IMG/VR virus record: IMGVR_UViG_3300045988_132972
DNA length: 46,194 nt
Direction: 5' to 3' (one strand)
From: a virus
Position numbers and translations under genes: made by a program. The notes beneath the pieces were generated by a model. That model saw nothing but the letters and a program-made list of their open reading frames with translations. It made no database searches and had not been told where the DNA came from. This document shows, piece by piece, positions 8,098 to 23,642 of this stretch. How positions within the stretch are numbered: position 1 is the stretch's first letter; each line of letters begins with the position of its first letter.

Positions 8098-8297
8098 AAA
8101 AAGAGCTGCCGGAGAGCAGCTCAAACCAAGATAGACAAGCCGTGTAACGACTTAAATACATTATATTCTATTGTATTAATAAAGTCAAGAAAATCAATTA
8201 AATTATGGCTTTTTAAAAGCAAAAATAAATGCGGTCAAAGCCGCATAAAAACTTGATTGAAATAATTAACTTAAGAACCAGGAGAGACATTTTTAAT

Positions 8298-9074
8298 ATG
8301 CCATATGTAAAAGAGATATGTGTGGCAGGTAGCGTGGTAACGATAAGGAGATATCATACCCTTAGATATAACTGTAAGGGGGAAAAGAGAGAAAATAGAG
8401 AGAAGCCTACAACAGAGATGCAGAGGCTTATAAACGAGAGGGCGGCGACAAGAAAACTGGCAGCGTCAATGAATACGAATTGGCGGGACGATACAGGAAT
8501 GCTTGTTACATTCACTTACGCGAAAGATAAAAGACCGCCCACTGTGGAAGAAATGAATAACGATATACGCAACCTGCTAAAAAAACTCCGCAAGGAGCTT
8601 AAAGGTATAGCACCACTAAAGTATATATATGTCAAGGAAGTAGGAAAGAAAGGTGCGCACCATATTCATATGATTATGGATATATGCGATATGCAGATTC
8701 TAAAAAAATGCTGGCGAAAAGGACATGTTGACATTAAGCCACTTGACAGTGACAACGATTATACACGAATAGCAGAATACTTTATAAAGTATGCGAATAA
8801 AACCGAACAAGCATTAGGGGGGAGAATAGGCAAGCGCTGGAATTCTTCCCGTAACTTAAAAAAGCCGGTAATTATTAAAACAGTTGTAAATGCTTCAACA
8901 TTTGCTGGCAAATCAAGAAAGAACACTATCAGGAAATGGGAAGACCAGGGATATTACATGGTTGTAGGTTCGGAAGTATGCGGAACATCAGAATTAGGAT
9001 TTAAGTATTATGAAGTAAAATTCAGGAGGCGACAAAGTGATAAAGGTAAACATATACATAGGGGTATCGGCTAG
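8298..9074 (+). CDS. HUH-superfamily rolling-circle replication initiator (phiX174 A / P2 gpA type)
   Basis: Motif 1-like LVTFTY. HUH motif GAHHIHMIM. Two-tyrosine motif AEYFIKYANK (compare YVAKYVNK of phiX174 A). The start at M24 follows GGAGAG. Confidence 0.75.
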   Translation: MPYVKEICVAGSVVTIRRYHTLRYNCKGEKRENREKPTTEMQRLINERAATRKLAASMNTNWRDDTGMLVTFTYAKDKRPPTVEEMNNDIRNLLKKLRKELKGIAPLKYIYVKEVGKKGAHHIHMIMDICDMQILKKCWRKGHVDIKPLDSDNDYTRIAEYFIKYANKTEQALGGRIGKRWNSSRNLKKPVIIKTVVNASTFAGKSRKNTIRKWEDQGYYMVVGSEVCGTSELGFKYYEVKFRRRQSDKGKHIHRGIG

Positions 9075-9489
9075 AGGACCCGCAATAAAGAAACATGCAA
9101 GCTATATGTATGTGATAAAAGCCTGCATCAAAGATAAAGAGTGCATCAGGAACGGTAAGGGAACATTGGAAAATACAACAGAAAATCAGCTTACACTTAC
9201 AGCTATTGTCCACGCACTTATGAGATTTAATAAGGGGTGCGATATCTGTATTAATACATCTAATGAGCATGTACTTAACTCATGTCGTAATGCATGGCCG
9301 CAACAGTGGGCTAAGAATAACTGGGTGAAATCTAATGGAAGACAGGTCAAAAATGCTGAATTATGGCAGCAGTACTTAAATGTGAGCAGAATGCACAACA
9401 TAAGCTGGTCTGATGAAAAAGAACATGAATTCAGCAAATGGATTGATCATGAGCTTAAAAAGATGGAGGCGGAATATGTCAGGGTATAA
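9037..9489 (+). CDS. RNase HI-like protein with a degenerate active site
   Basis: TENQLTLTAIVHALMRF and WAKNNWVKSNGRQVKNAELWQQY align with E. coli RNase HI TNNRMELMAAIVALEAL and [23 protein letters not shown]. The D10, E48 and D70 equivalents read G, T and S. GTG start after AGGAGG. Confidence 0.7.
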   Translation: MIKVNIYIGVSARGPAIKKHASYMYVIKACIKDKECIRNGKGTLENTTENQLTLTAIVHALMRFNKGCDICINTSNEHVLNSCRNAWPQQWAKNNWVKSNGRQVKNAELWQQYLNVSRMHNISWSDEKEHEFSKWIDHELKKMEAEYVRV

Positions 9490-17096: not shown

Positions 17097-17600
17097 ATGG
17101 ATAAGACGAAAGGGCTTTCAGACGAGGCAAGAATCCTTGATGATTTTTTGAAGCAATATAGAGTATGCATTAACAGAAAACGCGCATTAGAAGCAAGAGA
17201 ACAGGACATTATAAGAGAATTTGATATGCCTCTTAATGCACCGGTTAACGATGGAATGCCGAGGGGTTCAGGAGAAAACCTCGGCGCCGCCTCTCTGCCT
17301 TTACAGCTTGATGAAATTCAGACGAGAATCAAAGAGTCAATAAAAGAATGTACTAAGGCATATTTGAAGGTTGATGATGTTATATCTTATCTGGGAGAGA
17401 ATACAACAGAACGAGCTATTTTGGAAAGAAAATACATAGACCGCCAGGGCTGGGCTGATATATGCAAAATGGAAATGTTGTCAAAAACTCCAGCCACTCA
17501 GTATTGGCGTAATGGTTTATATACTTTGTTAGAATTCGCCAGGGTGCAAATGATTGTTATGGAGCATAAAAAGATTATGGAGAAGAGAATATATGGATAA
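17097..17600 (+). CDS. ArpU/RinA/DUF1492-like late-gene transcriptional regulator (sigma region-4-like HTH)
   Basis: The C-terminus ERAILERKYIDRQGWADICKMEMLSKTPATQYWRNGL resembles region-4-type HTH regulators found upstream of Firmicutes phage packaging genes. The gene is the last long one in the early block. Confidence 0.5.
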   Translation: MDKTKGLSDEARILDDFLKQYRVCINRKRALEAREQDIIREFDMPLNAPVNDGMPRGSGENLGAASLPLQLDEIQTRIKESIKECTKAYLKVDDVISYLGENTTERAILERKYIDRQGWADICKMEMLSKTPATQYWRNGLYTLLEFARVQMIVMEHKKIMEKRIYG

Positions 17601-17928
17601 CATGACGATTTGTGAGAAACACAGAGAATATCAACATATTTTTTATCTTGAAAAAATGTTAAAAGAAGCAGGATACCCGTATTTTTTTAATTTTAACCGT
17701 GATTATCCGGATATTATCTGGGGTAAATATGAAATGCAAATCGATATAGAGCAACGCGCAGGATTTAAAAAGCCTATGTTAGAAATTTTTTGCGACGGCG
17801 GGCTATTAAAACTTTGTGACTACAGAGAGAACCAGACGCCGGAAACGGCACAAGGAAAATTTTGTGACGGGCTTACATCTGAAGACTGCATGCAGATCAT
17901 AGAAAAAATTTTTAAAAAACATAAATAG
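17593..17928 (+). CDS. Hypothetical protein (111 aa)
   Basis: The ATG at 17593 lies after GGAGAAGAG, within track ORF 17554..17928. Confidence 0.6.
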   Translation: MDNMTICEKHREYQHIFYLEKMLKEAGYPYFFNFNRDYPDIIWGKYEMQIDIEQRAGFKKPMLEIFCDGGLLKLCDYRENQTPETAQGKFCDGLTSEDCMQIIEKIFKKHK

Positions 17929-18006
17929 CACACCATAGCACCGCACAGAATGTTAATATAATCATGACTGATATGGATATCAAAACTGCACGATTTACCC
18001 TCTTAG

Positions 18007-18036
18007 AGGACGGACTTCAAAAGCCCGTCCTTTTTC
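18007..18036 (+). terminator. Terminator of the early plus-strand block
   Basis: AGGACGG pairs with CCGTCCT, followed by TTTTT. Confidence 0.8.
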
Positions 18037-22276: not shown

Positions 22277-22289
22277 TCCAGAAATTCAA

Positions 22290-22313
22290 GGGCGGCATCA
22301 TTGCCGCCTTTTT
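22290..22313 (+). terminator. Terminator after the RelE module
   Basis: GGCGGCA pairs with TGCCGCC, followed by TTTTT. Confidence 0.8.
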
Positions 22314-22363
22314 AAATTCTATAATATCCCTGTCTCCTCTCTACCTTCACAACCTCAGGACAA

Positions 22364-22383
22364 CAGCAGACGGCACAGCCTCA
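22364..22383 (+). repeat. 20-nt repeat CAGCAGACGGCACAGCCTCA, copy 1 (copy 2 at 22822-22841; diverged copy at ~22499-22519)
   Basis: Exact match read from the sequence. Confidence 0.9.
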
Positions 22384-22472
22384 CGGCATAAGCTCTACCC
22401 TGGTCTATATACCGGAGAGGACAAAGCACAGCAGAAGAAGAGCAGCAGAGAACACAACCAGGAACAGCAGAA

Positions 22473-22491
22473 GCCAGACACACAGAAGCCA
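22473..22491 (+). repeat. 19-nt repeat GCCAGACACACAGAAGCCA, copy 1 (copy 2 at 22796-22814)
   Basis: Exact match. Together with the 20-mer it forms a ~55-nt bipartite repeat unit. Confidence 0.9.
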
Positions 22492-22609
22492 CACACAACA
22501 GCAGACGGCGACAGCTCCACCATATAGCCAGGAAGCAAGGAAGAAAGGAAGAGAATCAGGAAGCAAGACGGCATCAGCTCCGTTTACAAAACGATAAACG
22601 ATACACACA

Positions 22610-22660
22610 GAGCAGACAAAGAAGGTCAAGCGCCTTTTCTGTCTGCTCTTTCTGTTTCTA
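22610..22660 (+). terminator. Terminator-like hairpin in the middle of the T-depleted island
   Basis: GAGCAGAC (22610-22617) pairs with GTCTGCTC (22641-22648), followed by TTTCTGTTTCT. Confidence 0.5.
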
Positions 22661-22795
22661 TAGATCCATAACGGCAGCAGCTAGGCACAAGGGGGAGACC
22701 TGGCAGCAGGTAAGGAAGACAGGAAGAGAGAAGACACGGCCGGAGACGGCAGCAGACGCAGAAGGGACAAGGACAGCAACCACCACATAACAGCA

Positions 22796-22841
22796 GCCAG
22801 ACACACAGAAGCCAGGCATGGCAGCAGACGGCACAGCCTCA
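22796..22841 (+). repeat. Second copy of the bipartite repeat (19-mer at 22796-22814 plus 20-mer at 22822-22841)
   Basis: Exact matches to 22473-22491 and 22364-22383. Confidence 0.9.
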
Positions 22842-22964
22842 AGCCTCCGGAGGCTCTCCGATCCGGCTCAAAGCGACTACACGACTACCCAAAAGGTTAG
22901 ATTGAAAGTGCGTAGGTACTACCCAGCCCCACCCCCTATGCGGGTCGGAGAAAGGCGCATTAAT

Positions 22965-22986
22965 TCCGCCGATAAAATCAAAAAAT
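22965..22986 (+). promoter_or_regulatory. Degenerate copy of the CGCATAAAATCAGAAT box, ~105 nt upstream of terS
   Basis: TCCGCCGATAAAATCAAAAAAT versus TCCGC--ATAAAATCAGAAT. Confidence 0.35.
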
Positions 22987-23090
22987 AATTTCGCATTTCG
23001 TTACGCAATGGGGTAAAAAATGCATGTTAGCACGCAATAGCACTAGCGTTCATGATATTTTGATATTGTGAAAAAATATAAAAGGGGCTG

Positions 23091-23642
23091 ATTACTACGG
23101 CAGGAAGACCAAGAAAAAAAGAATTATGCGAATCAAAAGAAATTGCAGAATTGTTCGGTGTAACTGTGCGCAGAATTCAGCAGCTTACACAGGACGGGGT
23201 AATATCCAGCGTTCAGGTTAAGGGAGAGAGGGGAAGACGATATGAGAAAGACGAGACAGTTAAGACTTATATCAAGTACCTTTCCGACAAGGCAAATGGC
23301 AAAGCAACATCTAAAGGTGAAGCGGAATTGAAGGAACAGAAATTAAAAGTTGAAATAGCGCTGAAAGAATCTCAAAGAGATTTACATGTGTTGCGTACAG
23401 ATATTGCGGCAGGAAAGTATATAACCGTTGAAGAGGTTAAACTTGACTATAGCCGCTTTTTTGTTGCCTTCAAAAAATTTGCATTATCCCTTCCTAACAA
23501 GATTGCATGGCAGGTTGCCGGTTCTGTTGAACCGACAGAATTAAGGCGTATTGAAAACGAAATGCAACAGGAGGTAAAGAGGCTGCTTAATAGTTTCGTT
23601 GTATCTGCTGTTGTGGAACGGGAAAATGATGAGGAAGCCTAA
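23091..23642 (+). CDS. terS: Terminase small subunit (N-terminal winged-HTH), start codon uncertain
   Basis: The frame is open from 23082 and encodes ..KKELCESKEIAELFGVTVRRIQQLTQDGVI, a typical TerS/Nu1-like HTH. The first ATG/GTG/TTG in frame is the TTG at 23151, inside that HTH. ATT (23091) or CTG (23088) follow AAAGGGG. Confidence 0.7.
   Translation: MTTAGRPRKKELCESKEIAELFGVTVRRIQQLTQDGVISSVQVKGERGRRYEKDETVKTYIKYLSDKANGKATSKGEAELKEQKLKVEIALKESQRDLHVLRTDIAAGKYITVEEVKLDYSRFFVAFKKFALSLPNKIAWQVAGSVEPTELRRIENEMQQEVKRLLNSFVVSAVVERENDEEA

Follow-up and report, generated by a model that had tools for sequence, protein, structure and literature searches.

A T-poor, non-coding tract adjoining the predicted cos site at the right chromosome end of a gut Clostridia phage

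We analyzed a viral contig of 46,194 nucleotides (nt), IMGVR_UViG_3300045988_132972 (the window, whose presented strand is called plus), in which a first-pass annotation had pointed to an almost T-free, GC-rich island upstream of the small terminase gene terS. The island does not code for protein and forms the right-terminal ~0.6 kb of the virion chromosome in a temperate, cos-packaging myophage of gut Clostridia, where it lies between the early and accessory genes and cos. Its genomic role as a cos-flanking right-end spacer is well anchored, its mechanism is not. We tentatively favor the reading that the tract specifies a rightward-transcribed, untranslatable, unstructured and U-poor spacer RNA. 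This reading is supported by the position beside cos, the non-coding status, a composition that is conserved between lineages, a depletion of Shine-Dalgarno cores, promoter- and terminator-like edges and an RNA structure no better than that of shuffled sequences. That the tract is transcribed, and what the RNA or the DNA as a buffer would achieve, is our inference.

Composition and repeats of the island

T is missing from the plus strand at 22411-22515 (105 nt) and at 22712-22787 (76 nt), and the longest T-free run outside the island is 38 nt in the whole 46,194-nt window. At a T content of 26.3%, a run of 105 nt has a chance of ~1e-14 per start position. We counted 6 T in 22671-22840, where about 7 had been reported. 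Base fractions at 22326-22900 are A.35, C.28, G.25 and T.11, as compared with A.35, C.16, G.22 and T.26 in the window, and thus in effect C stands in for T. The GC content is 50-58% in the island and 33-40% in its flanks. The hexamer CAGCAG, previously given as occurring at least 10 times, is found exactly 10 times in the island (46 plus-strand copies in the window), and CTGCTG is absent from it. The repeated units seen earlier are real: a 42-nt unit is located at 22468 and 22791 (86% identity), and a 20-nt unit at 22364 and 22822 (100% identity). The C-rich run CCCAGCCCCACCCCC is indeed present at 22921-22935. The first-pass description of T depletion, raised GC content and repeats is thereby borne out.

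Among shorter words, AGACGGC has five copies in the island, all co-oriented, and totals nine on the plus and one on the minus strand of the window. AGCGG, the Bacillus subtilis Chi sequence, is missing from the island. Window-wide, its plus-strand copies number 51 (~29 expected from base composition) and its minus-strand copies 7 (~11 expected), with the copy closest to cos on its left side at ~22235. The GC skew of the island is ~0 in this window. A weak 10.5-nt helical phasing signal (z = 2.4) is present in the window alone and was otherwise not seen, and a 2-nt periodicity is absent.

We found the same island in three IMG/VR contigs and in ten independent human-gut metagenome contigs of 67-375 kb, in which the phage is integrated. 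The island is thus not an assembly artefact, an outcome that the first-pass annotation had left room for.

The island is non-coding

A 3-nt periodicity is not detectable in the island, and terL, used as a control, shows a period-3 signal. As noted earlier, all plus-strand open reading frames (ORFs) of the island are without a start codon, and the long minus-strand ORFs exist because that strand is short of A. More generally, long open frames arise because a T-free strand cannot hold stop codons on either strand. The open frames in the tract differ among lineages, with no common ORF and no start codons. Gene callers placed no gene at the island in nine of ten metagenome copies and a spurious 220-amino acid ORF in the tenth.

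Searches with Rfam 15 covariance models returned nothing at gathering score in the window and only chance-level hairpin matches at a permissive threshold (E up to 10). A scan for tRNA and transfer-messenger RNA genes had no hit. In ten related loci Rfam found a single tRNA and nothing else. A BLAST search of the island against 50,697 phage records gave as its sole match the cos block of Faecalibacterium phage Epona. The right ends of the phages lambda, phi3626, Sfi21 and sk1 contain no comparable T-poor tract, and we found no equivalent of the island described in the literature. As far as could be checked, the earlier statement that this composition is not known from any described phage element therefore holds, and the element appears to be undescribed.

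We also considered a template or variable repeat of a diversity-generating retroelement and rejected it, as no island segment has a second copy elsewhere in the window. No reverse transcriptase was found among the ORFs scanned, a scan that did not take in every ORF. Epona does carry a diversity-generating retroelement, which is located far from the Epona tract.

A cos site directly to the right of the island

As read from the alignment of related phages, cos lies directly to the right of the island at 22912-23009, and contains three elements:

22912-22922, plus strand: cosQ-like 11-mer GTAGGTACTAC, conserved in Epona and most related lineages
22943-22955, no strand assigned: predicted cohesive end (cosN) of 12/13 nt, GGTCGGAGAAAGG, from alignment to relatives; the left end of the virion DNA would start here
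22957-23009, plus strand: cosB-like block, an A-tract plus TTTCGCATTTCGTTACGCAA, conserved at fixed spacing

The cohesive end was read from the termini of relatives and transferred to the window by alignment. The 46,104-nt contig IMGVR_UViG_3300035365_000039 starts with GGGCACGGAAGG and ends with GCGGGGCACGGAAGG, such that a 12-nt repeat is found at both termini, as expected from end-filled cohesive ends. Three further viral contigs begin at the same aligned base, which makes four independent contigs in all. The 11-mer is located 20-30 nt upstream of the cohesive end and is replaced by GGTACTTCC in one sub-group. On the other side, TTCGTTAC (22997-23004) follows exactly 39-40 nt past the cohesive end, a spacing that is invariant in 34 loci; in these the block takes the form GCGG followed by GGCGAGGAAGGCCCG, 39-40 nt and TTCGTTAC. 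By analogy with the position of lambda cosB, 22957-23009 may be involved in terminase binding. We considered TTCGTTAC as a -10 element of the extracytoplasmic function sigma factor type, but its fixed 40-nt spacing to cosN fits cosB better.

Similarity to deposited phages is limited to a ~100-nt block at 22910-23008 shared with Faecalibacterium phage FP_Epona, where it lies, without annotation, in the gap preceding the methylase and terS genes. Relatives of TerS from viral and genome collections share the cos block as well. The large terminase subunit is of the GpA type (PF05876, E = 1e-81; PF20454, E = 1e-70), and the portal protein belongs to the lambda family (PF05136, E = 6e-91). The terminal repeat, the shared contig starts, the GpA-type TerL and the lambda-family portal together identify the block as cos. 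Its position in turn makes the island the last ~0.6 kb of the packaged chromosome. In lambda, right-end DNA is packaged last and ejected first, and by analogy the same would hold for the island.

The arrangement resembles lambda cosQ-cosN-cosB in the terminase and portal families, in the 12-nt terminal repeat of a related full-length contig, in a conserved element 20-30 nt upstream of the cut and in a conserved fixed-spacing block downstream, just upstream of terS. It differs in that the sequences are unrelated, and in that lambda has no T-poor tract upstream of cosQ. A tRNA gene is found beside cos in some lineages with the same cos, upstream in L110 and L234 and just downstream, at 1910-1981, in L092. 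There is no T-poor tract abutting cos in L110 and L234; L110 has one at -715..-367, and L092 has a short one at -112..-6.

The first-pass annotation had proposed that the island itself is a cos/terminase-recognition array. Cos packaging and a nearby cos are confirmed by our analysis, the recognition array is not. The island does adjoin cos and terS, and its units are repeated and co-oriented, as would be expected of a cosB-like array of terminase binding sites. However, conservation of the cos region begins at ~22910, and the island is not part of the conserved recognition sequence. TerS is conserved across lineages, and so is the block past cosN, in which TerS sites of the lambda type would be expected; the island repeats are not, even in sisters with 87% TerS identity. 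Moreover, the motif shared with these sisters (CGGCnnCAGCTCC) is unlike the conserved repeats on the cosB side (ACGCAA), and many lineages with the same cos lack the tract. We thus regard it as very unlikely that the island repeats are TerS recognition sites.

Composition, side and polarity are conserved, sequence is not

We compared 28 non-redundant lineages carrying the cos block (L numbers), counting as a tract a maximal-scoring segment that reaches 90 and lies no more than 800 nt upstream of cos. A T-poor tract is present on the same strand in 18 of these, an A-poor tract in only one, and the median scores are 108 for T-poor and 21 for A-poor segments. Typical tracts are 110-690 nt long with 0-10% T. 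The composition is kept at the same locus where TerS is only 47-60% identical and in hosts of ~38-60% GC. It is thus the composition that recurs between related phages, and not the sequence: our island is unalignable with that of the sister lineage L049-L052 despite the TerS identity of 87%, and only the 13-15-nt motif CGGCnnCAGCTCC and the left border survive.

The tract is located upstream of the activator-type promoter described below in L056, L059, L066, L094, L116 and L128, for example, and downstream of this promoter and its terminator in, for example, L053, L057, L064, L098 and L099. In the window, cos separates the tract from the late promoter. Constant across lineages are the side of cos on which the tract is found and its polarity. 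The distance from tract to cosN varies from 0-42 to ~230 nt.

In 13 population copies, the island is length-stable and 2-10% divergent, as is the early region, whereas cos and the late genes are 99.8% identical. A mosaic break is found at ~22907, the border between island and cos, with identity rising from the cosQ-like 11-mer rightward. This boundary suggests that recombination is focused at or next to cos. Local hypermutation was rejected as an explanation of the 14% variable columns, which reflect the mosaic boundary, as the island diverges no more than the early region does. In the substitution spectrum, C/T differences are common (214, compared with 274 A/G).

A sub-group of lineages (L053, L057, L093, L096, L098, L099 and L111) has a perfectly conserved palindrome of 14-16 bp, (G)TTGCGACGTCGCAA(C), at about -95 from cos and inside the T-poor tract; it is probably a protein-binding site. 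Arrays of CCGGAAAAAT- or CCGGGAATTT-like repeats are located between the activator gene and the T-poor tract, with up to eight copies in L128 (-760..-560), and are also found upstream of the tract in L059, L066, L094, L116 and L145. The window has a single CCAGAAATTCAAGGGC at 22279-22294.

Shine-Dalgarno cores are depleted from the tracts

We next turn to word content, for which the tracts of 16 lineages were compared with dinucleotide-preserving shuffles. Of all 5-mers made up of A, C and G, the Shine-Dalgarno core AGGAG shows the strongest depletion, with 3 copies observed and 25.6 expected (z = -4.6). GGAGG ranks third among depleted 5-mers and GGAG second among 4-mers. AGGAG is entirely absent from the tracts of 13 of the 16 lineages, and its depletion holds on whichever side of the late promoter the tract is located. 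Purines make up 60-72% of the tracts, with CA, AG and GC steps enriched and AA, CC and CG depleted. There is no strong common motif, the best candidate being CACAG (85 observed, 46 expected). A Rho utilization site was considered and discarded: the tracts are purine-rich, G equals or exceeds C in most lineages, and YC dinucleotides are slightly depleted.

It had also been suggested that the RNA acts as a sponge, the GGA clusters resembling CsrA decoys. Like CsrB and RsmZ, the island is non-coding and repeat-containing and bears purine tracts with GGA, and a sponge could equally serve Hfq or another single-strand RNA-binding protein. In the window, ARN runs of at least four triplets cover 35 nt (15 expected) and (AN)n runs of at least six repeats 36 nt (12 expected), the latter being mildly enriched across lineages, too (z = 2.5). 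Yet GGA covers 45 nt in the window, close to the 40 expected from dinucleotide composition, and the 16 lineages together show no enrichment of GGA (z -1.75), of ANGGA (z -1.2) or of runs of ARN (z -0.15). With GGA and ANGGA at or below expectation, AGGAG strongly depleted, no hairpin loop predicted to display GGA and no conservation of sequence, the likeness to CsrB and RsmZ breaks down, and a sponge function is highly improbable.

A neutral origin would have the tract arise by slippage and duplication of T-less seeds (CAG, CACAG, GGCAG) in dispensable intergenic DNA. The internal duplications of 20 and 42 nt are in line with this, as are the dinucleotide bias to the CA/AG/GC cycle of (CAG)n, the unalignable sister lineages, the absence of the tract from 10 of the 28 lineages and the common C/T polymorphisms. 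We nevertheless find such an origin improbable. Slippage would not be expected to deplete AGGAG specifically, and it sits poorly with a strand-specific composition that is the same at this locus in lineages with 47-60% TerS identity and hosts of ~38-60% GC. The 13 population copies, length-stable and 90-100% identical to the window, likewise speak against it, and a 105-nt T-free run should decay fast in a 38% GC genome.

Two halves with promoter- and terminator-like edges

The island consists of two T-poor halves separated by a hairpin:

22288-22311, plus strand: intrinsic terminator of the upstream antitoxin-like gene, GGGCGGCA to TGCCGCC and then TTTTT (-18.3 kcal/mol, z = -4.7)
22304-22327, plus strand: left border CCGCCTTTTTAAATTCTATAAT with the -10-like TATAAT at 22322-22327; 17-18 nt are identical in L049-L052
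22335-22608, plus strand: T-poor half 1, with the 105-nt T-free run and the repeated motif CAGCAGACGGC(N1-2)CAGC(C/T)(T/C)C
22609-22659, plus strand: 17-bp hairpin and U-rich tract, candidate intrinsic terminator of a half-1 transcript; the arms are essentially conserved in the 13 population copies
22659-22664, plus strand: TATAGA, a -10-like hexamer as read from the sequence, adjoining the start of half 2; putative function
22671-22905, plus strand: T-poor half 2, with 6 T in 22671-22840, T-free at 22712-22787, and the palindrome AGCCTCCGGAGGCT at 22842-22855

The left border is retained in the sister lineage L049-L052 despite different upstream genes. It is a candidate promoter for the first-half transcript, with a poor -35 element. 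In the variants L239, L242 and L046, a 10-nt tandem duplication, TTAAATTCTA, is found at this border (22312). Half 1 starts ~10 nt and half 2 a few nt past their -10-like hexamers, and the tracts of at least 10 further lineages also have a TAnnnT-like hexamer next to their 5' edge, mostly just past an intrinsic terminator. The terminator-like hairpin reported earlier is very stable: it spans 22609-22649 at -27.6 kcal/mol (z = -6.5 compared with shuffles) and is directly followed by UUUCUGUUUCU. RNA from half 1 folds no better than shuffled sequences (z +1.0 and +1.25), and the T-poor RNA is predicted to be essentially unstructured.

A proposed untranslated spacer RNA or a possible element of the chromosome end

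The arrangement is consistent with one or two untranslated transcripts. RNA 1 would begin past the TATAAT at 22322 and stop at the terminator 22609-22659, and RNA 2 would begin past the TATAGA at 22659 and head toward cos. An RNA that contains no U has no start or stop codons, no U-tract terminators and no AU-rich RNase sites, and its DNA has no -10 hexamer on either strand. Selection would then have removed all signals that require a sense-strand U or an antisense-strand A (T-rich pause motifs among them), and in addition Shine-Dalgarno cores. The product would be a naked, purine-rich and structure-poor spacer RNA, and the DNA would act as a signal-free, ribosome-free buffer ahead of cos. In sister lineages whose late promoter precedes the tract, the latter would take late transcription across cos. 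We favor a transcribed, untranslated RNA because avoidance of Shine-Dalgarno cores is hard to explain in DNA that is never transcribed.

Several points weigh against a spacer RNA. The -35 elements are poor, and a consensus scan called neither island promoter. Since a T-poor segment by definition begins after a T, finding a -10-like hexamer at its edge says little in AT-rich DNA. Depletion of the Shine-Dalgarno core is the only RNA-specific signal. Ten of the 28 lineages fall below the cut-off of 90, several with a shorter or weaker tract, and the tract is thus dispensable for cos function. A signal-free buffer leaves the retention of the DNA unexplained. Finally, the fixed side and polarity of the tract and the variable position of the promoter fit a DNA function of the chromosome end equally well.

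Such a DNA-level element tied to the chromosome end is possible but somewhat unlikely. It could help the translocating terminase to recognize and stop at cos, protect the entering or cos-cut right end from AddAB/RecBCD by Chi-like co-oriented motifs, or limit the acquisition of CRISPR spacers from the right end. The T-poor strand ends 3' at the right terminus and is also the strand running 5' to 3' in the direction of packaging, and its side and polarity with respect to cos are constant where the position of the late promoter varies. The mosaic recombination break at the border of island and cos also fits. The kinetics of lambda cosQ, the orientation of Chi in P1 and spacer acquisition from the cos end would favor a role of this kind, and oriented Chi clusters near phage packaging ends are known, for example in P1. 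The five AGACGGC copies in the island resemble these clusters in that they are short, face one way and lie on the strand with its 3' end at the DNA terminus. The sister L051 has four copies of CAGCGGC, which contains AGCGG. However, the motif differs between sisters, and no k-mer is common to the lineages beyond composition, CACAG reaching only 85 copies (46 expected). AGCGG, the Firmicute Chi, which may not be that of the host, is missing from the island in spite of its 51 plus-strand and 7 minus-strand copies in the window. A motif array would also leave the avoidance of T in the spacers and the depletion of AGGAG unexplained. Further, the distance to cosN varies from 0-42 to ~230 nt, Epona has a Gam-like end-protection protein alongside its tract, and nothing similar is found at the right ends of lambda, phi3626, Sfi21 and sk1.

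In another scenario, nascent RNA stays hybridized to its template beside cos, and the resulting R-loop would prime DNA synthesis as in ColE1 or T4, open the cos region or cap the DNA end. R-loop-prone regions include the ColE1 RNA II origin, T4 oriF and oriG and the immunoglobulin switch regions. The island shares with them a purine-rich, U-poor and unstructured sense strand past promoter-like elements, and the lack of Shine-Dalgarno cores would also favor hybrids, as would the G clusters at the 5' edge of many tracts. For sense RNA, the halves are the two most RNA:DNA-favoring 200-nt windows of the 46 kb, with -0.217 and -0.166 kcal/mol per nt (z = -3.9 for half 2, and -2.8), as calculated with nearest-neighbor parameters, a result that mostly restates composition. 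The phage encodes an RNase HI-like protein. On the other hand, the island has no positive GC skew (~0 in the window) and is not linked to an origin, a Rep-like initiator is encoded in the window itself, and the annotation of Epona, which has a (weaker) tract, contains no RNase H. We thus judge an R-loop zone to be quite unlikely. A broader possibility, which we consider unlikely, is a dedicated "U-less" transcription unit at the chromosome end whose RNA persists by cos either as a hybrid or as a naked single strand. If true, priming of late replication, licensing of cos cleavage or shielding of the first-entering end would in this clade fall to an R-loop or a run-off transcript. The tract would then be a compositional nucleic acid element, neither sequence-specific nor structural, and invisible to homology and covariance searches.

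The clade of human-gut Clostridia prophages to which the cos placement, the predicted cohesive end and the proposed late promoter architecture apply is uncultured and widespread, with 453 assembly blocks on record for the portal protein of the window phage. If our interpretation is correct, the tract represents an element of which only the composition (T-free, purine-rich and without Shine-Dalgarno cores) and the strand polarity are conserved. Such features escape sequence homology, ORF calling and RNA covariance models alike, and gene callers can mis-annotate them, as with the 220-amino acid ORF. If the constraint acts on RNA, the tract would specify a natural "ribosome-proof, terminator-proof" transcript. 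If it acts on DNA, it would point to an unrecognized requirement at the chromosome end that is packaged last and ejected first.

Candidate late promoter, activator and neighboring genes

Two features follow downstream of cos:

23027-23069, plus strand: candidate activator-dependent late promoter, with the same architecture in more than 20 lineages
23091-23642, plus strand: terS, with a helix-turn-helix of excisionase/MerR-like type and probably an ATT start, as read from the sequence

The late promoter candidate is built from two direct boxes, TTAGCAC and ATAGCAC, with a spacing of 10 nt, followed by 9 nt of spacer, TGATATTTT and TGATATTGT. The best profile match on either strand of the window is 23024-23073, a weak one (E = 0.24). 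In the more than 20 lineages, this promoter type has two direct boxes of 6-7 nt spaced by 10-11 nt, an 8-9-nt spacer and TGnTAnnnT, with a second TAnnnT 8 nt after the first, and it is usually trailed by a ~100-nt leader and an intrinsic terminator. The gene upstream encodes a small sigma-70 region-4/DUF1492-like protein, whose homologue in the window is located at 17097-17597 (32% identity, E = 3e-18). A second copy of the promoter, at 17926-18036, has two ATAGCAC boxes 10 nt apart (17926-17942) and TGTTAATATAAT, and runs into a short leader with an intrinsic terminator behind it (-20.6 kcal/mol, z = -3). This module directly follows the activator operon, and ~4.3 kb of accessory genes (a DnaJ/LPD29 protein, helix-turn-helix proteins and a ParE toxin pair) separate it from the island.

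The island had also been interpreted as a short leader that needs antitermination for late expression. A promoter-leader-terminator module does exist in the family, and in the window at 17926-18036, but with the late promoter candidate downstream of cos, the island is probably not the leader of the late operon in this phage. The hairpin 22609-22659 would instead serve well as the terminator of a separate, upstream transcript. We also examined TATAGAT at 22659 as the activator-dependent late promoter of the family and dropped it in favor of 23027-23069 upon profile comparison. The module in more than 20 relatives, with a promoter, a ~100-nt leader and a terminator upstream of cos and the late genes, resembles lambda PR'-6S RNA-tR' with Q, or HK022 put. 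It differs from PR'-tR' in that the adjacent regulator is sigma-70 region-4/DUF1492-like rather than Q, and in that the T-poor island is not that leader, its hairpin not being preceded by the family promoter type.

The promoter boxes vary by lineage (TGAGACA, TTAGACA, CAGGACA, GGACTA, AAGTAC, ATGCAC and TAGCAC, e.g. in L059, L056, L116 and L057), and the extended -10 and the downstream TAGCGTGG stay constant. This would be in line with co-evolution of the sigma-region-4-like activator with its sites in the -35 region.

There is no ATG, GTG or TTG upstream of the helix-turn-helix of terS, and an in-frame TAA is located at 23079-81, such that only ATT at 23091 or else CTG at 23088 is available as the start, after the ribosome binding site AAAGGGG. 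The arrangement GCTGATTAC is conserved in the sister lineage. Automatic callers place the start too late, yielding a protein of 158 amino acids. A host search of genome contigs gave no close relative, the best TerS match being 62% identical. Elsewhere in the window (8229-9486), an ORF for a Rep-like replication initiator (PHROG 3584/3419) overlaps the start of the RNase HI-like ORF, which is located at 9037-9486 (NF001236, E = 1e-19).

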